A stretch of 64,000 nucleotides of DNA, from positions 32,001 through 96,000 of IMG/VR virus record IMGVR_UViG_3300020576_006644. One strand, 5' to 3'. The position numbers and the translations under genes were made by a program. The DNA is from a virus (lineage: Duplodnaviria; Caudoviricetes). Shown here one piece after another: positions 1,659 to 64,000 of the stretch. Within the stretch, counting starts at the first letter, position 1, and the number at the start of each line of letters is the position of its first letter. The notes under the pieces are model-generated. The model was not told the origin of the DNA and ran no database searches. It was given only the letters and a program-made list of their open reading frames with translations.

Positions 1659-2468
1659 ATGCCCACCGCCTCCATTCTGGTCAACGCGCTGGCGACCCCG
1701 CGGGCGGTGCCGGTCAACTCCGTCGTCACCCTGTCCGAGGCTGCCGGTGGGTGGCTGAGCTACAACTGGACTCTGCTGGACCAGCCCGAGGGGGCGGCGG
1801 ACGCGCTGGTGGGCCCGACCACGGCCACCCCGACCATCACCCCCAAGAAGGAGGGAACCTACCTCATCCTCTTGGTGGTGAACGCCGGGACCAACACCGA
1901 GCAGCGGGTGATGGCTGTCTTCTACGTGCTGCGGCTGCTCGACGGGCGCCGCAACCCCGCCGCCGGCGAGACGCTTGAGCAGAACATGGTCCGCGGGTGG
2001 GCGGAGAACGTCAACCAGCAGCTCACCGACATATCGGACCTGCGCAAGGACGCCGGGCGCCAGGCCGGGGTCATCAACTTCAACGGCTCGGCGGCCAACA
2101 GCTCGGTCCTGTATGTCGCCGGGACCCAGCAGCTGCTCGCCACGCTCCCCGGCTCGTTCTACCTGCCGACCATGGGCAAGGCACTCGCGAACTCCGCCGC
2201 CACCCTGCACGGGGACCTGTACCTGCTCGACCGCGGGGTCATAAACCTCACGGCGCCGGTGGCAGGCGAGGTGATCTGGGCCCGCATCCACGGGGTGGCT
2301 TACAACGTGCCTATAGGCGGCACCACCTTCGGGGACCCCATCTACCTCTCCAACACCGGGCTCCTCGACACCGCTCCCGGCGCCACCTCCAGGCAGGTCG
2401 GCATCGTGGTGCAGGCGCGCCTTGGGGACTGCGACGTGGAGTTCGACGGTCACAGGCAGGGGTTCTGA
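1659..2468 (+). CDS. Putative virion structural protein (Ig/PKD-like N-terminus)
   Basis: SYNWTLLDQPEG...PKKEGTYLILLVVN resembles a PKD/Ig-like strand pattern; Gly/Thr-rich C-terminus. Confidence 0.55.
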   Translation: MPTASILVNALATPRAVPVNSVVTLSEAAGGWLSYNWTLLDQPEGAADALVGPTTATPTITPKKEGTYLILLVVNAGTNTEQRVMAVFYVLRLLDGRRNPAAGETLEQNMVRGWAENVNQQLTDISDLRKDAGRQAGVINFNGSAANSSVLYVAGTQQLLATLPGSFYLPTMGKALANSAATLHGDLYLLDRGVINLTAPVAGEVIWARIHGVAYNVPIGGTTFGDPIYLSNTGLLDTAPGATSRQVGIVVQARLGDCDVEFDGHRQGF

Positions 2469-2890
2469 TGCCCATCTTCCGCCGCATCGCTGTGCTGCAG
2501 CGCGCCAGCGCCCACCTGCCGCTGAACGCCCCTCCCGACCCGCGCCGCACCATCGAGGTCCGGGCTGGGGAGGACAGCGATTTCTACTTCGAGTTGCTCG
2601 ATGATGGCGGCACCCCGGTGCAGACCGTCACCGGCGACGCCGTGCAGATCACCGTACGACCGACCCCCACCGTCGACGATGAGCGCGTCTTTCGCATCGA
2701 CCTTGCCCCGGCACCGCTGGAGGGCCCCAACATCTGGCACCTGCTCCTGGCCGCCGAGCTGACCCGTCGGAAGTCGACGGAATTTACCCGCGGCTTCTAC
2801 GCTCTCACCCGCATAGCCAGCGACGGGAGACGCGACTACATCATCGAGACGAGCCCCTTCCGCCTCTTCGGTTCGCCCGGGGCCCGCTAG
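2468..2890 (+). CDS. Putative structural protein (BppU N-terminal-like)
   Basis: ATG overlaps the upstream TGA; IEVRAGEDSDFYFELLDDGGTPV...AVQITVR pattern. Confidence 0.5.
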   Translation: MPIFRRIAVLQRASAHLPLNAPPDPRRTIEVRAGEDSDFYFELLDDGGTPVQTVTGDAVQITVRPTPTVDDERVFRIDLAPAPLEGPNIWHLLLAAELTRRKSTEFTRGFYALTRIASDGRRDYIIETSPFRLFGSPGAR

Positions 2891-3420
2891 TCCTCCTCGG
2901 GCTTGGGCCTCCGGTGCGCCCGCGGCTGGGTGGTTCCCCAGGGGCTCGCCAAGACCTTGGGCAGCTTCTCCCCGGGCTTTCTCGACATTCCGCGCTGGAA
3001 GGCCTCGACCGCCCGCAGCTCCAGCTGGCGAATCCTCTCGCGGGTGACGCCGAAAAAGGGCGACAGCGACCGCAGGATCATGGTCCGGTCCCCGGAGTCC
3101 ACGACCTCGGCCACGTCCAGCGCACAGCTGTAGGGGAGCTCGGCCGGGTCCTCGGCGGTCTGCCGCACCTCGGCTGTCTCGCAGTCGATGTCGACGAGCA
3201 AACTGTGGCGGCATGTCGCATAGCGACAAGGGCGGGCGGCGTTCTTGCCGCCGGGCATGCAGTCCGCCCTTGTCGTGGGTCGCCAAACAGGAAGCCGCCG
3301 CCGCGGCTTGGCGGCGGTAGGTGGCGGCGCTGGCGGAGCCCGGCGGCGGACCGGCCGGCGCGTGGACAGGCCGGACCGGCGAACGAGGATGATGACGTAG
3401 GAGGGCTCGGGCTCTTGCAT
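2887..3420 (-). CDS. Sigma-70 region-4-like HTH protein with Cys-rich N-terminal part
   Basis: FGVTRERIRQLELRAV = sigma70 r4 helix; preceded by RPTTRADC...RPC..ATCRHSL..SCALDVAE. Confidence 0.75.
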   Translation of the reverse strand: MQEPEPSYVIILVRRSGLSTRRPVRRRAPPAPPPTAAKPRRRLPVWRPTTRADCMPGGKNAARPCRYATCRHSLLVDIDCETAEVRQTAEDPAELPYSCALDVAEVVDSGDRTMILRSLSPFFGVTRERIRQLELRAVEAFQRGMSRKPGEKLPKVLASPWGTTQPRAHRRPKPEED

Positions 3421-3474
3421 GAGCCCAGAGGATGCGATGCGCAGGCTGTAGGGTCAACGTGCGCGTGAGATGGC

Positions 3475-4419
3475 TTACCCGCGCGTGGTGCCCAGCGCCG
3501 CAGCCACGCGGCCCGGATCTACCATCTGCAGGAGCAGAGAGATTTTGTCAGTCACGGTCATTCCGCTAGAGAACTCTCGGGCCACCTCGGGGAAGTAGTC
3601 GATGCACAGCGCCACGAGATCTGAATCCCTGACCTGCTCAAGTCGCCTGCGAAGGGCAGGGCGGTCCAACCTAGCTATCGGGGCTGGCACCGGCGAAGGA
3701 TTGTCACCCGCGGGCTGCGCAAACGCCTCAGCCACGGGCTCAATAAAAAGCCGCTCAGCCGCAGCCGCCTTCTCGACGTGGCTTGCTTGCGCAAAGCTGG
3801 CCTCCAGGCGCCGCCACTGCACCGACACCTCGGGCTCCGCCAGCTCCTTGGCCGCCCGCGCCGGGTCGCTGACCGCGTAGGCTGGGATCAGGCTCCGCGG
3901 GCCGTGGGCCAGCCACAGGATGCGGCTGTTGCCGCGCTCCACCCAGATGCCGGACCAGTCAGCCCCGGTCACACCGTCGACCAGCTTGCCGTCATAGTCG
4001 TCGAGCACGTTCCCGGTGATCTGACACCGGGGCAGCTTAGCGGTCGACGAGGAGATGGCGGCCGGCTGCACCACCAAAAGCCCCTTCCAGGTCGAGCGCT
4101 GGGCGGGCCGCTCCTTGAGGTCCTTGACGAGCGCCCGCGTCTCCGCCAGATCCGGCTGGCCGTTGCGCAGGACCACCCACGGCATCCCGCGGACGATCCG
4201 GCTCACCGCTGCGCGGGCGTCGGAGTCACCGGCCAGTGCCCGCTCCACCTCGTCGGCCTTGGCACCGCCGCCCTTGCACTCGGCGATGATGGTGGCGGCG
4301 CGCCCGATGGGGATGCCGAGCGCCTCCCCCAGGTCCTTGGCGCCGACGTGCGCCGCGCCCTCCGGGGTCCAGCCCTGCTTCTCCCACGCCTCTTTCTCTT
4401 TTTCGTTCAGGTCGAGCAT
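3475..4419 (-). CDS. Hypothetical protein with C-terminal effector-associated-domain (EAD)-like module
   Basis: C-terminal LRRRLEQVRDSDLVALCIDYFPEVAREFSSGMTVTDKISLLL. Confidence 0.55.
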   Translation of the reverse strand: MLDLNEKEKEAWEKQGWTPEGAAHVGAKDLGEALGIPIGRAATIIAECKGGGAKADEVERALAGDSDARAAVSRIVRGMPWVVLRNGQPDLAETRALVKDLKERPAQRSTWKGLLVVQPAAISSSTAKLPRCQITGNVLDDYDGKLVDGVTGADWSGIWVERGNSRILWLAHGPRSLIPAYAVSDPARAAKELAEPEVSVQWRRLEASFAQASHVEKAAAAERLFIEPVAEAFAQPAGDNPSPVPAPIARLDRPALRRRLEQVRDSDLVALCIDYFPEVAREFSSGMTVTDKISLLLQMVDPGRVAAALGTTRG

Positions 4420-4576
4420 CTGTGATCTCCTTGTGTGCGTTCAATAAAACCCTTGGATTGGAGCGCCATGCCATACCCGGCCAAGCCTCGCCGGGCCGTA
4501 CGTAACCCAACAGCAGCCCACCTCAACGATCTCTACCTACGCCGGGTGCAAGTAGCGCGCAATACCAGACGTTTGT

Positions 4577-5074
4577 TCAGCGCGGAGCACGCTCCCCGAC
4601 CTCATCGACGGTCCACCGCGGGGCCTTGAGCGAACTGCCCTTAGCAAGGCGCACGATCAGAAACCTGTACGGGTGCATCTCGACGGCGATCTTGAGCTTC
4701 GCCCAGCTGTCGTCGCGGAGGAAACCCTTGACCTCGTGAAATTCGATGATACCAGCGACGGTGACGACCCTAAAATCGGGGACGTAGAACGTGGAGTCGG
4801 CGAGTCGCAGGTGCTCAGGGTGTGCGTCTACGCGCCGAAACTCGCCGATGCGCTGCCGCGCCTTCAGGTGCTCAAAGTACGCGGCCTCGGTCTTGTTCAG
4901 CTTCGAGGGGCGCTCGTAGGCGATCACAGGGGGCGCCTGCATGATCTCAGCGAGCGGTGCCGGCTCCTGCTTTCGCTGGGTAGGGCAGGGGCTGTGGACC
5001 GCCGCTCCGCTCAGCATCACCGTGCTGTCCCCGGTCTTGAACGGCTGACCGCACAGCCCGCAATGCGTGTTCAC
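4577..5074 (-). CDS. PD-(D/E)xK nuclease (DUF1064-like)
   Basis: YVPDFRV...FHEVKG catalytic signature; N-terminal CxxC...HxxC. Confidence 0.75.
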   Translation of the reverse strand: MNTHCGLCGQPFKTGDSTVMLSGAAVHSPCPTQRKQEPAPLAEIMQAPPVIAYERPSKLNKTEAAYFEHLKARQRIGEFRRVDAHPEHLRLADSTFYVPDFRVVTVAGIIEFHEVKGFLRDDSWAKLKIAVEMHPYRFLIVRLAKGSSLKAPRWTVDEVGERAPR

Positions 5075-5442
5075 CGGCGCACCCCCAGCTTCCGGGTGAC
5101 GAGCCCCGACTGAAACAGCGTCAGGTCGTTGCGGATGACGGGGATGCCGAGCCGCTCGGCCTCGGCCAGTTCAGCCAGGGTCCCCTTGCTCGTCTCCCAC
5201 CCGGGGCAGGCGTAGACGACATCGCACCGCCTCATGAGCTCCAGCGTCCCGGCGTACATCCCGGCCTCGTCGATGCCGTTTTCGGCGGGGCCACCCAGCT
5301 TGTGCGGGATGACCGGGAAGACGTTCTTCCCGCAGGCGGCGAGCTGCACCCCGACCTCGCGGGCGATGCGGCAGTTCTCCTCGACGCCGGCTGGGGTGGG
5401 GGCCGTGTAGCGGCCGGCGACGTAGACCAAGATCATCTTCAT
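5071..5442 (-). CDS. DUF4406 / nucleoside 2-deoxyribosyltransferase-like protein
   Basis: VYVAGRYT...LMRRCDVVYACPGWETSKGTLAELAEAERLGIPV. Confidence 0.75.
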   Translation of the reverse strand: MKMILVYVAGRYTAPTPAGVEENCRIAREVGVQLAACGKNVFPVIPHKLGGPAENGIDEAGMYAGTLELMRRCDVVYACPGWETSKGTLAELAEAERLGIPVIRNDLTLFQSGLVTRKLGVRR

Positions 5443-7127
5443 TTTTGGGCTCCGAGCTGGATGTGTTGATCGAAGGGTATCCCCCTCGACATCTTCTCGT
5501 CGTGCGAGAGAACAACCACCAAATTGTCCTTGGCTTCCTCGACGAGCAAAGCGGCTATCCCGTCAAGGCCTTCATCGTCTAAACCATTAAGCGCCTCGTC
5601 GATGACGAGGTAGGGCAGCGCCAGCCGGTTCCGGTCCGAAGCGGCCAGAACCTGCCGCCGGGCCAGCAGCAGAGCCAGGTCGACCCGCCGCAGCTGCCCG
5701 GTGGAGTAGCGCCCGACCTCCGCCATCTCCTCCGGGCCTTCGTCCGGCCGCGCGCCGAGCACCCGCGAGACCTCGCGGACCTTGCCGCCGGCGGTCTCCG
5801 AGGTCCTGGCGATCTGGATGCGGGAGCCCGGCCATGCCCGCGCCAGCTTGGCGTTGGCCAGCTGCTCGACCACCTGGAAGGCCCGCTCAAGGAGGCCGGC
5901 ACGAGCACCGCGGGGACCGAGCATCCGCTCGGCCAGCTCCAGCGCCTGCCGCTCCTCATCCGCCCGGGCGAGATCCTGCTCGACCAGCTCCAGCCCAACC
6001 CTGGTCTGCTCGACCTTCTCCCGCGCCTGCGCCTCGGTCGCCCCCAGCCGCTGCCGCTCCTCGGCCGTAGCGATGCGGCGGGTAAGGTCCTTGACGGCGG
6101 CGTCTGCGGCGTCCCAGCGGCGCCGGAGGTCGGCTATCTCGGCGCGCAACTCGGCGCCGCGGATCTCCTGGTCGGAGGCGGCGCGGGCGCGCAGGGCCTG
6201 GACCTCGACGGCGAGCTGGTCGCTCAGCCTGCCGGCCTCTTCCCGGCGGCTGAGGATCTCGGCGCGGGCGCGTGCTGCCTCTGCCGGGTCCCCGAGCGGC
6301 CGGCGGCAGGTCGGGCAGGTCCCGTCCCCGCAGCGGCGCAGCTCGTCCGAGGCCTGCTGCTCCCGATAGCGGGCGTCCCGCAGCTGCTGCTCGACCGCCT
6401 GCAGCTCTGGACACGCCACCGGCGTCCGCAGCTGCTGATCCAGCTGGGCGACCCGCTGGTGGAGCGCCGCTCGCCGGCTCTCCAGCTTGACGCACTCCCC
6501 GCGCAGCACCGCCGGGTCATCCGCGGTGTCCGGCAGCGCCAGCACCCGCTGCAGCTCCTGCTCGGCCAGCTCAAGGTCGCGAGTCGCTCCGCTGTGGCGC
6601 GCGGCGGCGACGCGGAGTTCCCCCGCTTCATGCGCCTTTTGCCTGAACCGGCAGAGTGTCAGTCCATCGTCGAAGCCGGCGAGCGTGGGGACGAGCAGCT
6701 CGGTCAGGCGCTTGCGCTCCGCGTCGGTCCCGCAGCTGTAGGCGCTCGGGTCGTCGTGGCGCCACACGAGTAGGTCCGCCCACAGCTCCGCCGGCCCGTA
6801 CCGCTCGACCATGTAGGCCTCGGCCTTGGTCGCCGAGTCGCAGTCCACCTTCTTACCGGCGAGCGCCAGCGCCACCCGCACCTGCTGCCCAGCCTTCCCG
6901 CGGGACCGGACCGCCCGCAGGTCTCCCAGCTCGAAGTCCACCTCGCCACCCTGGCGCAGCGCGTCCCCGCGCGAGCCGGTGTGGCCGAACATGGCCAGCA
7001 GCGGGGCGTCGGCCGCCATAGATGTCTTAGCGCAGCCGTTCGGCCCGGTTAGAAGCACCAGCCCGCGCTCCGGCAGCTCAAGGCTGCGCGTGACCTTCCC
7101 GCCGTAGTTTTTGACCTCAATTCGCAT
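5439..7127 (-). CDS. sbcC: SbcC/Rad50-like ATPase (recombination nuclease subunit)
   Basis: Walker A GPNGCAKTS, coiled coils with CPTC zinc hook, signature YSTGQ, Walker B LVIDE, H-loop LSH. Confidence 0.9.
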   Translation of the reverse strand: MRIEVKNYGGKVTRSLELPERGLVLLTGPNGCAKTSMAADAPLLAMFGHTGSRGDALRQGGEVDFELGDLRAVRSRGKAGQQVRVALALAGKKVDCDSATKAEAYMVERYGPAELWADLLVWRHDDPSAYSCGTDAERKRLTELLVPTLAGFDDGLTLCRFRQKAHEAGELRVAAARHSGATRDLELAEQELQRVLALPDTADDPAVLRGECVKLESRRAALHQRVAQLDQQLRTPVACPELQAVEQQLRDARYREQQASDELRRCGDGTCPTCRRPLGDPAEAARARAEILSRREEAGRLSDQLAVEVQALRARAASDQEIRGAELRAEIADLRRRWDAADAAVKDLTRRIATAEERQRLGATEAQAREKVEQTRVGLELVEQDLARADEERQALELAERMLGPRGARAGLLERAFQVVEQLANAKLARAWPGSRIQIARTSETAGGKVREVSRVLGARPDEGPEEMAEVGRYSTGQLRRVDLALLLARRQVLAASDRNRLALPYLVIDEALNGLDDEGLDGIAALLVEEAKDNLVVVLSHDEKMSRGIPFDQHIQLGAQK

Positions 7128-7218
7128 CGAAGAAACCCATCCTGTACAGACCCCACATTCCCGCGAGGGTAGCCACGCCAGCACCCGTCAAGTAGCCGAG
7201 CCAAAAGTCATGGCTCAC
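7117..7218 (-). CDS. 33-aa membrane peptide between sbcD and sbcC
   Basis: GTG overlaps the sbcD TGA; MSHDFWLGYLTGAGVATLAGMWGLYRMGFFDAN, one hydrophobic helix. Confidence 0.5.
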   Translation of the reverse strand: MSHDFWLGYLTGAGVATLAGMWGLYRMGFFDAN

Positions 7219-8324
7219 CGCAGGCACTCCAGAGCGATCTGCACCGCTCGAACCTTGACCGCCTGGCTCACCCCCGGCTGCGCCGACGCCCACTCCTGCA
7301 GCGCATCCTCGACCTGCACGGCCCCCTGGACTGCCTCCACCACCTCGGTCTGCTGCTTGACGGTGGAGACCAGCTCGGTCTTCCAGCCGACTACACCCTC
7401 CCACTCGGAGATAATCGTTTCCGCCTCGCGCTGTTCGGCTTCGCTCATACAGCGGATGCTGAAAAACAGATCACAAGCGTCCAGTTCTTCCCGCGTATTG
7501 AGGTAGGTGAAGCCCTCTTCCCCGCCGTATTCGACTCGCTTCAGCTCCGCTAAGTCCTCAGTAATGAAACGTGGCCCCGGTACGTCGTGAAACTCGGTGA
7601 TTCCGCCTCCGTCAAGCACACACAGCTTGCCGACCTCCGGCTGGTCGCCAAAGTTTGCCTGGCACAGTGCGCCCACTTGTACGATGTTGATAACCCCTAA
7701 CACGCCTTCATGAATTACGTGCTGGTGGAAGTCACCACTTGCGAACACACGTAAATTGCAGTTCTTGGGAGCTTTTAGGCCAAGCTCGAAAATCTGCTCC
7801 ACGCTAATGATGTTTCGCCCGCTGGTCAAAAACGGCGATGTGCCTGGACCAACGATGCCGACATGCCCCAGGATTGACCAGTCACCCTTCCCGGCGCGCT
7901 CCAGCAGCTCGGTGAAGTACTCCACCGGAGGGCGGGGTGAGAACGGCGCCAGGATCACCCCGTCTTCCAGGTAGGTCGGTTCGTCCACCACGATGCAGTT
8001 CTTGGTCCCGACGAGCGCAGCAAGGGCGTTGTTGCCGGGTTCGTCGCTGCTCCGGTCGTGGTTGCCGGGGATGACGTAGACCGGGACCGGAGATCCGGCG
8101 ATGGCGTCGGCCGCCACCCCGATCACCTCGGGACTCGGCTTGCCGGTGTTGAACAGGTCCCCGAGCACCGCCACCCGGTCGCAGCCGATCTTGCCGGCGA
8201 GCTGCAGCCCGCGAGCGAAGGTGTCCCCGACCAGTCGGCAACGGAGGTTCACCCCGGCGGTGACGGGTCCGCCAAGCACTCGGTGGTTTTCTAGATGTAC
8301 ATCGCTAAGGAGCGCGATCCGCAA
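7215..8324 (-). CDS. sbcD: SbcD/Mre11 metallophosphoesterase nuclease
   Basis: SDVHL, GDLF, GNHD, GH, GDFH motifs; TTG start after AAGGGAG RBS. Confidence 0.9.
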   Translation of the reverse strand: MRIALLSDVHLENHRVLGGPVTAGVNLRCRLVGDTFARGLQLAGKIGCDRVAVLGDLFNTGKPSPEVIGVAADAIAGSPVPVYVIPGNHDRSSDEPGNNALAALVGTKNCIVVDEPTYLEDGVILAPFSPRPPVEYFTELLERAGKGDWSILGHVGIVGPGTSPFLTSGRNIISVEQIFELGLKAPKNCNLRVFASGDFHQHVIHEGVLGVINIVQVGALCQANFGDQPEVGKLCVLDGGGITEFHDVPGPRFITEDLAELKRVEYGGEEGFTYLNTREELDACDLFFSIRCMSEAEQREAETIISEWEGVVGWKTELVSTVKQQTEVVEAVQGAVQVEDALQEWASAQPGVSQAVKVRAVQIALECLR

Positions 8325-9027
8325 GGTAGTATTCTCCCTTTTTGCGATCAAATTTTACTAAACCGGACGCATACATTTTAATTACTAACCTAAATGCAGA
8401 TTCGTGGGCTATTCGATGGGTAGAGCTGTTGCACTTCCATAGGTTTACAATCCTATTATCTTTTTTAATTCCATTAATGTGGTGTATAACTTCTTTCCTA
8501 TCTATGTATCTTCCTAAATACTCTTCCATAACCAAAATATGCTCATACACATAACCACTTCTATGCGCTCTAGGGTGTGAACGATCTAATATAGCGGTAT
8601 AGCCATTAGAATCAGTGCGTCCTCCCTTCCACTGTGTCGCCATCGACTTGTATTTCCCGAAAGCGGGATTTTTGCTACCTTTTTTTGCTAACGCACCTTT
8701 CGGGCATTTAGTGCCTAAGCGTGGGTTAGGATTGTTGGCGAAAAATTCTTTGACTCTAATGCTTTGGGCTGTTTTTTGTTCTTCAGTCCGTGGGCTTTTC
8801 CAACCTTTTGAATGACCCTTTATCCATATATTCCACACCCGTCCCCTTTTTGATACATTTGAACCACACCCACATTTACAAAGAGGAGGTGGACCAATAG
8901 ACGGATAACGATGTCCTCGCACAAAAAGTAAATAACCGGGAGACTTTTTATCTTTTGGCGTAAATTCACCACACCCGCATGCGCATAGGCGTGGTTCGTG
9001 TGATTTACGACGAGTAGAAGCTAACAT
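8305..9027 (-). CDS. HNH homing endonuclease
   Basis: EHILVMEEYLGR...IHHINGIKKDNRIVNL; two CxCGC knuckles; sharply lower GC than flanks. Confidence 0.88.
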   Translation of the reverse strand: MLASTRRKSHEPRLCACGCGEFTPKDKKSPGYLLFVRGHRYPSIGPPPLCKCGCGSNVSKRGRVWNIWIKGHSKGWKSPRTEEQKTAQSIRVKEFFANNPNPRLGTKCPKGALAKKGSKNPAFGKYKSMATQWKGGRTDSNGYTAILDRSHPRAHRSGYVYEHILVMEEYLGRYIDRKEVIHHINGIKKDNRIVNLWKCNSSTHRIAHESAFRLVIKMYASGLVKFDRKKGEYYLADRAP

Positions 9028-9079
9028 TTGAAAAAATTACATTCACATTGAAAACCAATGCAAGCAAAAAGGGAGAAAA

Positions 9080-9224
9080 CGCCGCCGCGCGCCTTCCTGG
9101 GCTCCTGTCAGCCCTTTCCAGCGCAGGCGGCGAGTGTCAGAGGATCGGCGGTGATTCATGAGGGCCCAACTGAAAACCCCGTCCCGGTGCATCCACCGGG
9201 CACCACGCCCGCCGACCCCCTGAC
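9080..9224 (-). ncRNA. Candidate structured intergenic RNA
   Basis: 16-bp stem 9136-9151/9209-9224 that pairs fully only on the minus strand (two G-U pairs), inner hairpin CCCGGUG-GAUG-CACCGGG, second branched hairpin 9080-9132. Confidence 0.45.
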
Positions 9225-9234
9225 TGCAGGCCGG

Positions 9235-10113
9235 CTAGACGCCGACTGACATCTCCGGCGGCGGCGCGCCCTGCCACACCTTGACCTCGGCGTCCTTCTC
9301 CAGCTCGGCGACCATCATCCCGAACTCCTCAGTGATGAGCCGGTCGAGGTCGTGGATGTTCAGCTCGAAGAGGAAGGACCCGCCGACCTTGACGAGCTTG
9401 AGCCGCACCTCGACCTCGCGCTCCGGGCGGCCCTCGATGAGCGGCAGCCGGACCTTGAACCGCGGGTAGATGGTGGTCTTGGCGGTCGCGCCCTCCTTGA
9501 GCTGCGCCGTGAACAGCCGGGTCTTCGGGTCGCGGGAGACCTTGAGCACCCGGTTCTCCTCGATCTCCAGGTCGCTGGCCATGGCCAGGAGGTTCGCCGC
9601 CGTGGCGTCACCCGAGGGGACTACCCGGTCGGCCCAGTCGTCAATGAGGTCGGCGAACTCGTTCTGCCCGACCTGCTGGTTCCACAGCCGGACATCGGCA
9701 CTGCGGGCACAGGCGACGAACGCCCGGTGCCGGTTCCACCCCAGGCTCTCGGAATTCTCGCTGAAGTCCACGACGGTAGTGAAGCCGATGTCGCCGAGCC
9801 CCGAGGTCGGGGAGACGGCAAAGATCACCGTCCCCGGTAGCGCGAAGCGCTTGGTGAACTCGGCGAGGTCCTGCACGCGGGCGAGCTTGAGCGAGGCGCG
9901 GGCGACCAGCGGCCGCTTGTATGCCTTGCGCTCCGCGCTGGTCAGCTCCATGTGCCACTCCACGCCCCCGTGCCGGCCGATGGCCCGGACGATGGGCTCC
10001 TGCATCGAGGAGTCGATGTCCACGCGCTTGTCGATGGAGACGGAAAAGATGCCGGCATCGACCAGGGCCTTGGCCCCGGTCTCGGTCGTCTCGACGGTGT
10101 TGATCTGGGTCAT
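9235..10113 (-). CDS. DUF2303 (YfdQ-like) family protein
   Basis: GWNRHRA, QNEFADLIDDW, PRFKVRLPLIEG..VEVRLK pattern; preceded by the usual small partner gene. Confidence 0.7.
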   Translation of the reverse strand: MTQINTVETTETGAKALVDAGIFSVSIDKRVDIDSSMQEPIVRAIGRHGGVEWHMELTSAERKAYKRPLVARASLKLARVQDLAEFTKRFALPGTVIFAVSPTSGLGDIGFTTVVDFSENSESLGWNRHRAFVACARSADVRLWNQQVGQNEFADLIDDWADRVVPSGDATAANLLAMASDLEIEENRVLKVSRDPKTRLFTAQLKEGATAKTTIYPRFKVRLPLIEGRPEREVEVRLKLVKVGGSFLFELNIHDLDRLITEEFGMMVAELEKDAEVKVWQGAPPPEMSVGV

Positions 10114-10153
10114 GCTGTCCTTGTTCGAAATGTTCTAGGGGTTGAGGTAGCGG

Positions 10154-10504
10154 CTACTCGCCGGCTTCGAGGCGGGAGACGCTGGCGAGCCGCCCGCCCT
10201 TCTTGGCGACCTTCTCGCCGAACACGGCGATCTTGCCGGTGGGGGCGAAGACCGAGACGATGGCGGCGGCGCCGGAGACCTTGGGCAGGGTGGCGTTGAA
10301 GCTGGTCGCGAGGTCCGCCCGCTCCTGCTCAAGGTTGGGGATGATGCCGATGGTGATGCTGACGCTGGCGGCGGCGTCCTGCTTCATGGCCATCTGCATG
10401 GCGAGCTCGATGCGCTCGTCGAGCTGCTGGCGGCGGTCGGGGGAAAGGGTGCGGAGCCACACAAGCGTGGCGCTGTCCTCGGGGATGTTCACTTCGGTGG
10501 GCAT
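10154..10504 (-). CDS. Small partner protein of DUF2303
   Basis: 116-aa ORF with RBS; ASVSITIGI...NATLPK pattern; position. Confidence 0.55.
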   Translation of the reverse strand: MPTEVNIPEDSATLVWLRTLSPDRRQQLDERIELAMQMAMKQDAAASVSITIGIIPNLEQERADLATSFNATLPKVSGAAAIVSVFAPTGKIAVFGEKVAKKGGRLASVSRLEAGE

Positions 10505-10524
10505 GGTTCCTCACTCGGATCGGC

Positions 10525-10632
10525 AAAAAGGCGCTCCCGAAGGAGCAGGAGAAGGGCAGCCGCGCCACCGGCGACCGGCAGGCGACAAGGAGGGAAACGC
10601 CACCCGGAGGCCCCTGGCGGCGCGGCTGCCCT
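10525..10632 (-). ncRNA. Long rod-like hairpin followed by a UUCG hairpin and U-run (possible terminator/sRNA)
   Basis: 14-bp perfect stem 10553-10566/10619-10632 extended by G-U-rich helices; then GCUCC-UUCG-GGAGC..UUUUU. Confidence 0.5.
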
Positions 10633-10643
10633 AGGTGGAGATG

Positions 10644-11480
10644 CTACACCGGGCCGTCGTCGGCCGGGCCCACGCTGCGAGCCGGCAGCGTGCGGGCGGC
10701 CACCTGGCGGGGAGCGGCGGCGTGGGTCGTGGCTGCGACGTGCTGCACCGGGGCTGCCTGCGCGGGCGGGAAGCTGCCGCGGTCGAGCGCCTTCTGGTAG
10801 GCCTTCTCCTGCTGATCGTAGGTCAGGCAGCGGGCCTCGGCCGCGAGGTCCGGGGCGTTGGCGATCCAGTCGGCGACCTGCTGCGGGTCGGTGTGCAGCG
10901 GCGAGGGGCGGAGCCGGTTCTTGTACTCCCAGCGCTTGCCGCTGCCCTTGGGCGGGACGCTGATCGAAAGGTCGAAGCCGGCAGCGCTCGGGTCGAAGCT
11001 GTTGACCCCCTGCGCCAGCATGTCGCGGCTGTGCTTGGCGAAGGCGTAGTTGGCCTCGTGGATGACCGGCCCGCGCTCCTCGTCGTTGCGGAGGATGAGA
11101 CAGACGAGGTCCACCTGCCGAGCCTCCATCTGCTTGACGATCTCCAGGTCGAGCGGGTTTCCCTGGGCGATGTCGCGCATCTGCTCGTGGACGAGGCACC
11201 GCCCGCCCGGCACCCGCATCTCCAGGGGGCACAAGATGCCGAACCACTGCCCGTTGGGGAGCTGGTAGAGGTGGCGGGAGATCTTCACCATGGGCTTGCG
11301 GCCCTGCGGCGCGGGCAGCGGGCGCCCGACGAACTCGTAGACGCCGGGGTAGTCGGGGTTCTTCCCGCCGGTGCGCCAGTACTTCTTGGCGCTGCTCGTG
11401 GCGCTGGACTCGAAGTCCGCGGCGTCCGGCAGGGCGTAGGCAGTGAGGTCTGTTCCGGGGCTCTGATTTTCTTGGGTCAC
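10644..11480 (-). CDS. Single-stranded DNA-binding protein (gp32-like)
   Basis: H...ILCP....RCLVHE metal motif, FDPSAAGFDLSI, low-complexity tail ending DDGPV; replication context. Confidence 0.7.
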   Translation of the reverse strand: MTQENQSPGTDLTAYALPDAADFESSATSSAKKYWRTGGKNPDYPGVYEFVGRPLPAPQGRKPMVKISRHLYQLPNGQWFGILCPLEMRVPGGRCLVHEQMRDIAQGNPLDLEIVKQMEARQVDLVCLILRNDEERGPVIHEANYAFAKHSRDMLAQGVNSFDPSAAGFDLSISVPPKGSGKRWEYKNRLRPSPLHTDPQQVADWIANAPDLAAEARCLTYDQQEKAYQKALDRGSFPPAQAAPVQHVAATTHAAAPRQVAARTLPARSVGPADDGPV

Positions 11481-11517
11481 GTTGGTCTCCTGATCTTCCT
11501 GATTGCTGATCGGCCCT

Positions 11518-12150
11518 CTAGACGGGGCCCTCATCCTCGGCGTTGCCGCCGAGTCCTGTTGTAATCGTCCGCTGTGACGGCGCGCGGGTGTCCGGAGGGG
11601 CGAAGCCGCTGAAGCGCGGGTCAGCCGGCAGCAGCTGCTCCTGCCGCACCCCGCCACTCGGCCAGCTGCGCCCGAGCTGCGCCAGCCGCACCGTGGGGTC
11701 CAGGTTCTGCAGCTCCTGCCGCGTGTTCCGGGCGGACTCGGCCACCATGTCGGCCTCGGTGCAGACGGCGCGGTAGTCCGCCCGCAGGGCCTCGTAGCGG
11801 GCCTCCGCCATGGCCTCCTGCATCACCGCGGCATCCCGGCGCGGGGCCAGCACCTCGTCGGTCCGCATGAGCGCCTGCACCTGCGCCTCGGTCGGAGGCT
11901 TGGGGTCCTTGAGGTTACCCTTGGCATCCTTGACCGGCTCCGCCCCCTCCTCCAGCTGCAGCCGGGCGGCCTGGTAGAGGAACGCCTCCTCCTTCTCCCG
12001 GTGTTCCTTGGCGGCGGCAAACAGGAACTGCGCCTCGGCGAGCTGGCGCCCGACCTCACTTATGCGAGCCGGCACAGACATGAGGGCGGCGCCGATCTGG
12101 GTGTGGTCGAGCCACTGCGGCGCGGGCGGGAGCTGGGGGGTCTGGCTCAT
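11518..12150 (-). CDS. UvsY-like recombination mediator (helical)
   Basis: Long amphipathic helices with KPPTEAQVQALM motif; adjacent to SSB. Confidence 0.5.
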   Translation of the reverse strand: MSQTPQLPPAPQWLDHTQIGAALMSVPARISEVGRQLAEAQFLFAAAKEHREKEEAFLYQAARLQLEEGAEPVKDAKGNLKDPKPPTEAQVQALMRTDEVLAPRRDAAVMQEAMAEARYEALRADYRAVCTEADMVAESARNTRQELQNLDPTVRLAQLGRSWPSGGVRQEQLLPADPRFSGFAPPDTRAPSQRTITTGLGGNAEDEGPV

Positions 12151-61365: not shown

Positions 61366-61530
61366 GCCAGCCCTGACTGCGGGGACAGCTGGTCCCGCTT
61401 CCAGGACTTCGACATCGACACCACCTCCGGCTACACGGGCCTTGCCCAGAACGGCGGCCTCACCGTGTTCGCCGACCGCGCCGGGGAGTCCGAGATCTGG
61501 GGCTACCCGGTGAAAGGACCCCCGCTGTGA
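61366..61530 (+). pseudogene. Start-less 3' remnant of an Asp-box (BNR) repeat protein
   Basis: Open frame ASPDCGDSWSRFQ...WGYPVKGPPL*; SxDxGxSW Asp-box; strong GC3 coding bias; stop overlaps the next start. Confidence 0.5.
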
Positions 61531-61940
61531 ACCTCACCGAGCTGTTCAACTTCCTCTCGAACCTCAACCCCTGGTCGGTCCTGGGCCTGGCCATCGTGTG
61601 CGCCACCTACGCCTACACCCAGCGCTCGCGCGAGCGGCACCACGACAAGCGGCTGGCGTTCATCGCCCACCCAGGCCGGACCCCGGAGCAGCTGGCGGCC
61701 CTGGCTGGCTACCCGCTCCCGCCACCGATCAAGGAGCCGTCCAGCGGCAAGCTCGCCGCCCTCATGCTGCTCCTGTTCACCTCGGCCTTGGCCTACCGCG
61801 CTGGTGAGGGGGTGGTGCTGGCGCGGCTGCAGCAGGCGGTGCCGACTGGCCTCTTTGCCCAGAAGAAGGCTCCGATCGGCGACTTTCAAGCCGACCTTCG
61901 GCCGGACGGTTTGCCGGTCGGCACGCTGGTTAGCAGGTAG
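61527..61940 (+). CDS. Two-TM membrane protein (holin-like?)
   Basis: Two hydrophobic helices; follows tail genes. Confidence 0.5.
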   Translation: MNLTELFNFLSNLNPWSVLGLAIVCATYAYTQRSRERHHDKRLAFIAHPGRTPEQLAALAGYPLPPPIKEPSSGKLAALMLLLFTSALAYRAGEGVVLARLQQAVPTGLFAQKKAPIGDFQADLRPDGLPVGTLVSR

Positions 61941-62101
61941 ATCCGTGTGTTCAAGCAACGCGGAATGCGTAAAGCCTGCCGTATGTAGGAATGGTGTGTG
62001 TCAGACGGTAGCGGTGGAAGCGGAAGCAGACGCGGTAAAGCCTGATCCTTTGGTGTGCGAGGATCAGGCGTCGATTAAGACCGCCGATCGTGAAATTGGT
62101 C

Positions 62102-62805
62102 TTACCAGAGCTGATTTATAATCGCTTCCACAGACGATCTTTTCATACCTAAACCACCACAATCAAGAATGTAGTCAAACTGCGCCATCGCGCGGCCTAC
62201 GTCTCCTTTTTTGTTCCACACGTCAATAATGCGTTTACCTAATTCGTCGCAACTAAATCCGTTAGGATGCGACGCGAGCATGCAAAAATCGGCGCTGTCA
62301 GGATGTTTGAAGTACAGCGCGTGCGTGTCTGCTTCCTTTAGAACTCGCACCTGAAATGATCCGTTGACGTGCTCTTTTAGGCGAAGTACCTCATGGTTAT
62401 TAGAAGGAAGAATAGATCCGCCTACATTCGCTTTTGCCATAGTCCTAAGCCTTTCCTACCAGCTGAGCCGCTTCGCCTAGCTTGATTATCGCGTTCGTGA
62501 AGCCTAGCTTCATCTCCGGACCAAAACCAGCGGTTATCACGTCCTCACGCGCATCCGCCATCGCTCGCTCAGCATCCTGAACTAGGCGCAGCGCCTTAGC
62601 TCGCTTGCGGTCTATGCGGAGGACTAGAGCTCTCTGTTCTTTAGGTGTGAGCATGGTTAAGCTAGCGCTTTTTATTAGCTTGGCTGTACTTCTTAACCAT
62701 CGCTACGATAAAATCGTTTTCTTCTTTGGTAAGCGACTTTTTGGCGTCAGCCACGCGCTTAGACCAAGAATCTTCTTTGACCAGCTTGGTTTTCTTGTTC
62801 GCCAT
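62102..62805 (-). CDS. Three small minus-strand genes (62102-62440, 62445-62654, 62662-62805)
   Basis: Tightly packed ORFs; the third reads MANKKTKLVKEDSWSKRV... Confidence 0.65.
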
Positions 62806-62820
62806 GATGTCCAAACAACC

Positions 62821-62838
62821 TAGCACGCATCATGCCAG
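62821..62838 (-). promoter_or_regulatory. sigma54-like promoter
   Basis: CTGGCATG-ATGC-GTGCT with GG-N10-GC spacing, 15 nt before ATG 62805. Confidence 0.55.
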
Positions 62839-62938
62839 ATCCTAAAGTCCGCAAAGATCAAGGACTTCATCTAGTGTAGCCTGCGCAGATCCACAGTTTT
62901 CTGATACGCAACCTCAGTTTCCTAGAATCACGTCGCTG

Positions 62939-62955
62939 GTCAAATACCGTGCCAA
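62939..62955 (-). promoter_or_regulatory. sigma54-like promoter
   Basis: TTGGCACG-GTAT-TTGA. Confidence 0.5.
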
Positions 62956-63078
62956 CTTTTACACTCGGAAGTTAGGTAACTGAAACTGCGTTCAGTAGTC
63001 TCAGAAAACTGAGGATTAGCCGGTTCGTAAATGGTTGAACCTTTTGTCTAGCCGTCGGTGAGCTTGTGAAGACGTGTG

Positions 63079-63095
63079 TTGGCACGATGTCTGCT
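63079..63095 (+). promoter_or_regulatory. sigma54-like promoter
   Basis: TTGGCACG-ATGT-CTGCT, 16 nt before ATG 63112. Confidence 0.65.
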
Positions 63096-63111
63096 ATGTT
63101 GTTTGGTCATC

Positions 63112-64000
63112 ATGGCAAAGTCGCTCACACCACTAGAAGTAGAACAGATCATAAGCGGTACCTGGCGCTATCGGCAAGCCGCAAGCGAGGAAGCGCTTAA
63201 GGTGCGCCGCGAAGCGATGGCCAAGCATGAGGCACGCTTCAGTAAACTAGAGCAATTCAAGGCTTTAAGCAAGCAACGGCGTGAGGAAGTTGTGAGCGTG
63301 TTTCGCCAGACTTGCCTAGGTTGGCGCACGCCGATCGGTTACAGCGTAAACGGTAAGGTTGACCAAGCTGTCACTAGGTTGTGTGCGCAGGCTGCTAAAG
63401 GTTGGAAGTAGCATCATGACCGCCATACGTAAAACCGGCCTAGTCCACTTCTACCGCATCATAGGTACACCTACGGTAGTCGCGGAAGTCCTAGAGCCTG
63501 GCGACCTAGCCAGCACGCACAGCAGCGTTACCACGGTGAACGGCAAGTGGTACGGTACGCTAGGTACGCGTGTACTTCCGAAGGAAGTGGATGTACTGCC
63601 GTACGGTAACGAGCGCCTTGACGCTGTGATGGCTCACAGAATAAAACAAGCGGATTTTATCCGCAAGGCGCTGGCTCAGTTAGTAGATGAGGTAGCCGAG
63701 CATTTTCAACGGACTACAGCGGTATTTGATGGATACCGTTACGAGTGGTCAGACCAGATCTTCGCGGACTTCCTGTCAAGCCGCGACTCGTCGGCTAACT
63801 ACCTTCCTGTTGAGTGGACAGAGTACAAGGAGTAGTCAACATGGCAACGGTTCACACAGTCGTTTACTTCGACGAGTCGCGCGGTAGCGGTCCGGCCGGC
63901 GACTGCTCGCACACTGCGCGGTTTACCAAGATCAAGCGAGCGCAGGACTTTGCCAAAGGTAAGTTCCTGTATGGTCAGCCTGCGACCGTTGACACGGACT
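63112..64000 (+). CDS. Plus-strand genes 63112-63411, 63416-63835 and partial 63841->64000
   Basis: ORFs in series; AAGGAG RBS before 63841. Confidence 0.65.

Follow-up and report, generated by a model that had tools for sequence, protein, structure and literature searches.

Near-absolute local absence of GGG/CCC from two accessory-gene islands of a phage and its relatives

The DNA analysed here (the window, 64,000 bp in length) comprises bases 32,001–96,000 of the single IMG/VR virus contig IMGVR_UViG_3300020576_006644, which is 112,623 bp long and rated complete by CheckV. A preliminary description of the window had reported that the trinucleotide GGG and its complement CCC disappear from its last 2.1 kb. 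This region, zone B, and a second void elsewhere in the genome, zone A, are each shown here to be an autonomous accessory-gene island in which small orphan genes diverge from a shared control region. The ban on GGG/CCC operates at the DNA level; it is strand-symmetric, near-absolute, long-maintained and limited to the two islands and their immediate flanks. The features of zone B are listed below in window coordinates, with reference to the related contigs L010, L019 and L020; aa denotes amino acids, nt nucleotides and ORF open reading frame.

61861–64000, continuing to window-equivalent 64495 (genome 96,495), no strand: GGG/CCC-free zone B, conserved in L019 and L020
61527–61940, + strand: backbone gene, 137 aa, of no family; last ~80 nt void; L019 and L020 have orthologues flanking the island
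61945–62121, + strand: candidate Cys-rich ORF, 58 aa, GTG start, in the void, on ORF evidence only
62102–62440, − strand: left-arm orphan gene, 112 aa, no Pfam, PHROG or NCBIfam match
62445–62654, − strand: left-arm orphan gene, 69 aa, basic
62662–62805, − strand: first left-arm orphan gene, 47 aa, basic
62822–62837, − strand: left sigma-54-like element, TGGCAT-N5-GTGC, 17 nt ahead of the ATG of the first left-arm gene
62889–62907, no strand: 19-nt site 1, ATCCACAGTTTTCTGATAC, inverted partner of site 2
62901–62928, + strand: conserved central sigma-70-like promoter, CTGATA-16 nt-TAGAAT
62940–62954, − strand: central TGGCAC-N5-TTGA element within the ~130-nt core
62980–62995, no strand: imperfect palindrome, CTGAAACTGCGTTCAG, its pattern limited to the two island control regions
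62998–63016, no strand: 19-nt site 2, GTCTCAGAAAACTGAGGAT, a potential hairpin of 5-bp stem and A4 loop
63022–63041, + strand: in the right-arm leader, a terminator-like hairpin with a T run after it, a consensus match only
63080–63095, + strand: right sigma-54-like element, TGGCAC-N5-CTGC, 17 nt ahead of the ATG at 63112
63112–63411, + strand: right-arm orphan gene, 99 aa, basic
63416–63835, + strand: right-arm orphan gene, 139 aa; 11 metagenomic homologues, all obeying the Trp/Met rule given below
63841–64000, ending at window-equivalent 64062, + strand: right-arm gene, 73 aa; homologue inside the single island of L010

Across the window, 3,051 GGG/CCC trinucleotides were counted. As the preliminary description had stated, the final CCC lies at 61858–61860, with none from 61861 to 64000; for these 2,140 bp (51.8% GC), base composition predicts 74 sites. 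Both borders were mapped on the whole contig. Zone B spans genome 93,861–96,495 (2,635 bp), extending 495 bp beyond the window end, and contains no site against 93 expected from base frequencies or 45 under a first-order Markov model, which allows for low GG/CC. Zone A (genome 10,994–17,337; 6,344 bp) has a sole GGG, at 11,765, where the Markov expectation is 118. Together the two zones carry 1 site in 8,979 bp, against ~370 (base frequencies) or 163 (Markov); counts are thus far below expectation, not near it. The rest of the genome has 5,161 sites, and its longest GGG/CCC-free gap measures 155 bp. On the circular map the islands lie 27 and 76 kb apart, and the 77-bp terminal repeat of the contig is an assembly overlap only.

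Composition alone was rejected as the cause: low-GC kilobases elsewhere (47–56% GC) carry 30–38 sites per kb. No other trinucleotide shows a comparable void in this genome or its relatives, no tetranucleotide lacking an internal GGG/CCC is strongly depleted (lowest observed-to-expected ratio (O/E) 0.69), and no palindromic 4-mer falls below O/E 0.5 in the islands. Avoidance of homopurine tracts, triplexes or G-quadruplexes was also rejected, as purine and pyrimidine runs reach the same lengths as in the backbone (maxima 8–15). AAA/TTT runs are present and ORFs are intact within the voids. The ban spans both strands, both arms, and coding as well as non-coding DNA. The islands are lower in GC than the backbone and are under an oligonucleotide regime of their own beyond the GGG/CCC ban: at 0.78 per kb (O/E 0.47) CTAG is strongly avoided across the backbone, whereas the islands carry it at 3.3–8 per kb (O/E 1.1–1.3), a contrast also seen in relatives.

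Contigs of relatives, from independent metagenomes, were found through homologues of a 604-aa baseplate protein, a 222-aa island protein and the 139-aa protein of zone B. Matching zones proved to be present: islands occupy the same two loci, and are void, in nine independent assemblies. A-type islands correspond to zone A and B-type islands to zone B; the voids of seven relatives are as follows.

L008, A-type: void 1715–7555, 0 sites in 5.8 kb
L014, A-type: void 5192–10091, 1 site
L010, A-type: void 4629–10017, 2 exception sites (4 overlapping GGG/CCC positions)
L009, A-type: void 1–1934, running to the contig end
L022, A-type: void 7270–11605, 0 sites
L019, B-type: void 2330–4632, upstream of a Dam-like gene, with the same control motifs
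L020, B-type: void 3794–6990, with the same control motifs

When these seven are pooled with zones A and B, 36,879 bp of island DNA contain 6 site positions, against 1,640 expected from base composition or 647 under the first-order Markov model. The L010 island, with its two exception sites in 5.4 kb, is 61% GC. In the more distant L013 and L015, the LysM gene abuts the baseplate gene and there is neither island nor void; L012 has two small genes at the locus and a void of merely 310 bp. Gene content differs among islands and arms are swapped between lineages, and two zone B genes have homologues in the single island of L010. A core pair persists, the 222-aa protein and its 161-aa neighbour (40–74% identity), and orthologues as far apart as 40% identity are all void. 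The ban has outlasted extended divergence and turnover of genes, and this excludes a chimeric assembly as well as the recent insertion of foreign DNA. A profile search of GTDB genomes gave no prophage copy or host clue, and neither INPHARED phages, searched by DNA and by protein, nor IMG/VR, searched by pattern and by profile, gave a result. One relative contig was binned with a Hyphomicrobiaceae metagenome-assembled genome, which may be mis-binning. Two genes in the relatives are unusual cargo for a phage structural module: one for an MFS/PTR2-type transporter, by the tail genes, and one for a GGDEF-domain protein, among those of the baseplate (L010 1222–2469 and 17751–18506; L014 2479–3714; L012 17120–17761; L016 11015–11387).

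The ban overrides protein sequence. A GGG on the coding strand is unavoidable wherever the Trp codon TGG is followed by a codon starting with G, or ATG by a Gly codon. The preliminary description had noticed that Trp in zone B is never followed by a G-initial codon; indeed, none of its 11 Trp residues precedes Gly, Ala, Val, Asp or Glu, and Met-Gly is likewise absent. Across island genes of five genomes, 1 of 112 Trp residues (binomial P ~1e-22) and 0 of 106 Met residues form such pairs, compared with 53 of 138 (38%) and 6 of 102 in flanking genes; the sole Trp exception coincides with the one DNA exception. The rule holds in 23 homologues of the 222-aa protein (Trp 0/146, Met-Gly 0/63) and in 11 homologues of the zone B 139-aa protein (0/43 and 0/27), whereas 36 baseplate homologues, used as a control, give 85/246 and 19/263. 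Gly and Pro are also rarer in island proteins. Conserved loci, protein divergence of 40–60% and these constraints on the proteins strongly support the earlier proposal that, within a single genomic compartment, one short motif is strongly selected against. Purifying selection, strong and of long standing, acts on the DNA itself to keep each island clear of the double-stranded word GGG:CCC.

The void crosses into neighbouring structural genes, over about 100–300 bp. That it begins inside the ORF at 61527–61940 is literally true, but it does so just ~80 nt inside, and the position shifts by ~100 nt among relatives. At zone A, the last ~230–300 nt of the LysM gene are void in most island-bearing lineages (~175 nt in L014), as is the start of the baseplate gene, for 17–275 nt depending on the lineage. 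The first GGG at the right edge of zone B encodes Gly63 of the ORF at genome 96310–96765, and the identical border codon is found in this genome, L019 and L020, whose proteins are merely 43–48% identical.

Some indication of how the word is read comes from a leaky lineage, L016/L017. All seven of its island sites are GCCCA/TGGGC, although in its flanks only ~25% of CCC precede A and ~32% come after G. Tolerance of GCCCA/TGGGC alone points to a sequence-specific protein reader, and suggests that this reader contacts about 5 bp with a specificity that differs by lineage. Zero tolerance argues for an irreversible single-hit event at the site, perhaps cutting, nicking, a blocking adduct or a trigger, and not for diffuse binding or a DNA-shape preference.

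The two islands share an anatomy. Control regions of ~280 bp (zone B, window 62806–63111; zone A, genome 14541–14797) separate arms that encode products of 47–139 aa in zone B and 58–271 aa in zone A. Both contain a ~130-nt core that is ~93% identical between the zones but oppositely oriented, and that is flanked by an inverted pair of 19-nt sites; the core of these sites, TCAGAAAACTG, has four genomic copies, all in the two control regions. The exact palindrome CTGAAC-N4-GTTCAG has no copy genome-wide, and the relaxed form CTGAA[AC]-N4-[GT]TTCAG occurs in the two island control regions only. The control core also holds the sigma-70-like promoter, whose −10 hexamer is TAGAAT, but TATAAT in L020. 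An invertible promoter switch was rejected: in five assemblies the orientation of the core is constant for each island type, one way in A-type and the other in B-type. The core (window 62889–63050; genome 14581–14728) is kept in five assemblies with its sigma-70-like promoter, a terminator-like hairpin and the two 19-nt sites, each able to form a hairpin. It may specify an RNA of ~110 nt, or a long leader; a small RNA is not established, as there is no Rfam match and the fold z-scores are −2.1 and +0.65.

The sigma-54-like pattern TGGCAY-N5-NTGC has nine matches in the genome, eight of them inside islands, where ~0.3 would be expected in 9 kb; those outside zone B lie at genome 11956, 14539, 14663, 14769 and 15616. 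The GG and GC spacing of the island elements fits the sigma-54 pattern TGGCAC-N5-TTGC, and the central copy in L019 lacks the GG. Arms begin 17–20 nt downstream of such an element, a spacing that implies almost leaderless mRNAs. The elements are no more than candidate sigma-54 promoters, because the phage genome has no sigma-54 activator (AAA+ enhancer-binding, PF00158); a host activator might serve them.

Zone A sits in the tail/baseplate module, between a LysM-bearing tail/baseplate gene and the gene for the 604-aa baseplate protein. Near its ends is a 33-nt inverted repeat, 94% complementary (genome 11708–11740 and 16824–16856; L001 2708–2740 and 7824–7856), that gives two proteins of opposite arms, unrelated in all else, an identical acidic C terminus, GDPDAEDSEE; it could explain the arm swapping between lineages. 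Zone B lies ~2.4 kb upstream of the large terminase gene, the interval being filled by two small ORFs, a Dam-like methyltransferase gene that adjoins zone B, and a 197-aa gene. Phage genome ends often lie near the large terminase gene. The backbone gene at 61527–61940 and its orthologues have a conserved IGDFxADLRPDGLPV tail. A Cys-rich ORF similar to that at 61945–62121 is found at the left edge of B-type islands (L019 ~2325–2515; L020 3766–3960), co-oriented with the backbone gene and with a spacing like C-x5-C-x4-5-C-x4-C.

Against Pfam and NCBIfam the island proteins gave no match, and against PHROGs next to none; a search of a protein atlas with them gave no result, and the 161-aa family has no match in the PDB or Pfam. 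The ASCH-zinc gene, which encodes the 222-aa protein, is the sole gene common to all A-type islands. Its product is predicted by AlphaFold2 (predicted local distance difference test score 88.6) to be an ASCH/PUA-like barrel with an added Cys/His cluster. Foldseek matches the model to TRIP4, EOLA1 and ZmASCH (E 2.5e-4 to 2e-2, probability 0.97–1.0), the best structural matches being DNA-bound TRIP4 ASCH domains. The protein does not match Pfam ASCH; its alignment has an invariant K-x-x-E-x-R-G, to be compared with the GxKxxExR motif. The family has 20 cluster representatives among 1.8 billion proteins and is found almost only in these islands; its most distant member, in L021, lies outside any void. 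A homologue of DNA polymerase III beta (the sliding clamp) lies within the island of L017 (8151–9248, − strand) and of L022 (8571–9764, + strand).

Searches of the phage genome for enzymes known to act on G or C runs found none. C5-methyltransferase (PF00145), TGT/DpdA (PF01702), Endonuclease_NS (PF01223) and the DnaG zinc ribbon (PF01807) are absent from it. A NADAR gene (PF08719) lies amid structural genes, directly after the 604-aa baseplate gene (genome 18878–19324, − strand; L008 9114–9584, − strand). NADARs reverse guanine and cytosine ADP-ribosylation and are phage anti-DarTG1 factors, and the DarT1 of E. coli C7 has no consensus motif (PMC11543638, PMC12945103). A lead based on NADAR and ADP-ribosylation is not supported, given the absence of a DarT1 consensus motif and the position of the NADAR gene outside the void.

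Tentatively, we read the islands as early counter-defence cassettes that would be invisible to a single-hit, DNA-reading enzyme, by the logic of first-step transfer (FST) in phage T5. A sequence-specific enzyme would act on GGG:CCC, and one hit would disable a unit. It may be a nuclease, a nickase or a DNA-modifying enzyme such as an ADP-ribosyltransferase, and would most likely be a host defence whose specificity varies between lineages. The islands would probably be the first genes expressed and would encode counter-defence or host-takeover functions; they would have to function while the enzyme is still active, and so be written without its target. The ~5,000 backbone sites would be safe only once island products act, or would not be exposed at that time. 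Small, variable orphan genes, which are typical of early or anti-defence regions, the island-specific promoter-like motifs and the shared control core are consistent with such a role. That a class of enzyme new to science, be it host-immune or phage-encoded, reads GGG:CCC with flank tolerance set by lineage and affects phage DNA at a single hit, and that a high-GC clade writes its entire counter-defence islands, down to their proteins, without the word, strikes us as possible but somewhat doubtful.

Several observations weigh against the counter-defence reading. No GGG:CCC reader has been identified, and we infer the early expression of the islands from anatomy only. The islands are two and internal, one of them in the tail/baseplate module, so both cannot be the leading end. 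If the whole genome is injected fast, backbone sites are exposed to a double-stranded-DNA nuclease together with the islands; an extra assumption is needed, namely a lesion that can be reversed, an enzyme confined to DNA that is single-stranded or transcribed, or entry in stages. Seventeen GGG/CCC occur in the NADAR gene, which might erase G/C ADP-ribosylation and stands outside the void. Finally, the void takes in parts of late structural genes and ends on a border Gly codon shared by three lineages, which is unexpected under a model that purely protects the early genes. Of the preliminary description, then, the core inference of selection stands, and its two mechanisms are proposals only. 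It had proposed either genome-wide modification of GGG/CCC by the phage or a first-transferred leading region. The PAPS-reductase/ParB and PurA-like genes, which it named for the former, are not known to be connected with GGG/CCC, and the genome lacks C5-methyltransferase and TGT/DpdA. For the latter, the closest analogue is T5-type logic, but the islands number two and lie internally on the circular map.

Self-marking by the phage at GGG/CCC, by a bulky modification or a virion nick, would leave the islands unmarked for immediate reading by host RNA polymerase. We consider it unlikely, although it accounts for the tolerance of 5,000 sites in the backbone, a Dam-like methyltransferase gene lies next to zone B, and the conserved island protein is predicted to be ASCH/PUA-like, a family that includes modified-base readers. 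Sequence-specific hypermodification exists in phages, as in Mu Mom, but we know of no enzyme that marks GGG/CCC, and the genome has no C5-methyltransferase, TGT/DpdA or Endonuclease_NS; zero tolerance would need the modification to block RNA polymerase completely, and the void parts of late structural genes would be left unexplained. Nicked virion DNA is known in T5 (PMC10644984). Less likely again is a model in which the machinery for transcription or replication of the islands stops or starts at GGG:CCC, a unit extending from the control region to the first GGG/CCC on each side. The shared glycine codon at the right border of zone B in three lineages with proteins 43–48% identical would fit such a signal, as would the fairly constant ~230–300 nt of void in the LysM tail gene and the island-specific promoter-like motifs. 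Analogues are the vaccinia early terminator T5NT, which early genes avoid, and the trinucleotide recognition sites of primases. RNA-level signals such as T5NT are strand-specific, however, whereas both GGG and CCC are missing from both arms; other borders vary by 17–275 nt, no phage RNA polymerase, DnaG-type zinc ribbon or sigma-54 activator was found in the genome, and the extremes of cumulative GC skew lie away from the islands.

Self-immunity, in which an island protein such as the predicted ASCH-zinc protein binds or attacks GGG:CCC-rich host and competitor DNA while its own genes escape, is improbable. The presence of its gene, alone among island genes, in all A-type islands, the DNA-bound TRIP4 ASCH domains that best match its model, and the tiny family almost confined to these islands would suit it, but the phage backbone is as GGG-rich as any host and would be hit too, B-type islands are void yet lack the gene, the L021 homologue is not in a void, and coating by a binding protein would not demand zero sites. 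We give even less credence to a mutational footprint, in which a context-specific single-strand DNA deaminase or targeted hypermutation of transcribed islands erodes CCC/GGG. APOBEC3G-type enzymes do prefer CC/CCC, island GC is below that of the backbone and the borders are fuzzy, like those of a transcription-linked domain. The expected products are nevertheless not enriched (CCT/AGG, CTC/GAG and TCC/GGA, O/E 0.75–0.86), whereas CGC, GCGC and AGC are; the L010 island is still 61% GC with two exception sites, and gene order and proteins are conserved. Least credible by far is an artefact or recent foreign DNA, whether a chimera, homopolymer collapse or insertion from a donor that lacks GGG/CCC. 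The distinct oligonucleotide signature of the islands (lower GC, CTAG not avoided) might suggest it, but the same islands, loci and void recur in nine assemblies from different samples and assemblers, with intact ORFs, AAA/TTT runs and a void that reaches into conserved backbone genes. Chimerism and homopolymer collapse, which the preliminary description had itself named as possible refutations, are effectively refuted, the former by the synteny of those nine assemblies.

A three-base ban that is absolute, conserved in local islands and strict enough to exclude Trp-Gly/Ala/Val/Asp/Glu and Met-Gly from dozens of proteins could arise only with great difficulty unless an enzyme reads the word, and to our knowledge no reader of GGG:CCC has been described; literature searches found no description of such a GGG/CCC void. 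If evasion of a defence proves to be the cause, local k-mer voids would predict, on sequence alone, both the first-acting genes of phages and the targets of undescribed defence systems. 'Stealth-coded' early islands might then be a general signature, and defence specificities could be read off phage genomes.

Enzymes that read 2–3 bases or G tracts do exist: the chlorella viruses have Nt.CviPII (CCD), M.CviPII and M.CviPI (GC), and Endonuclease G prefers (dG)n.(dC)n tracts. The degenerate fourth or fifth position seen here, with GCCCA tolerated, resembles CCD in its kind of specificity, but no homologue of these enzymes was found in the phage (Endonuclease_NS is absent). In vaccinia, TTTTTNT is the early termination signal and is avoided inside early genes; there, as may be the case here if the islands are early, genes of a single temporal class have been cleared of a short word that the machinery specific to the class reads. 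The vaccinia signal is strand-specific and acts in RNA, however, whereas both strands and both arms are purged here. In restriction-site avoidance and leading-region depletion, as proposed here, selection removes a short word read by a defence enzyme. Depletion of 4–8-bp motifs has been examined in the anti-defence-rich leading regions of plasmids (bioRxiv 10.1101/2025.04.03.647016). Such depletions, avoidance of Type II sites among them, are statistical, usually genome- or region-wide, and concern 4–8-bp words, usually palindromes, unlike the present case of a non-palindromic 3-mer, absolute (0–1 site per 2–6 kb), with sharp edges and forbidden amino-acid pairs. In T5-like phages, restriction–modification, CRISPR and Ssp take effect only through sites in the FST region, whose two divergent transcription units act before the remaining genome comes under threat; sites elsewhere do not matter because FST products protect that remainder (PMC10644984). 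Like the T5 FST region, the islands consist of small genes, mostly without assigned function, in two divergent units. In T5 the region forms a terminal repeat and is the first DNA to enter, whereas here there are two different internal islands, and T5 lineages lack particular 4–8-bp sites, whereas here a 3-bp word is absolutely banned across a clade.

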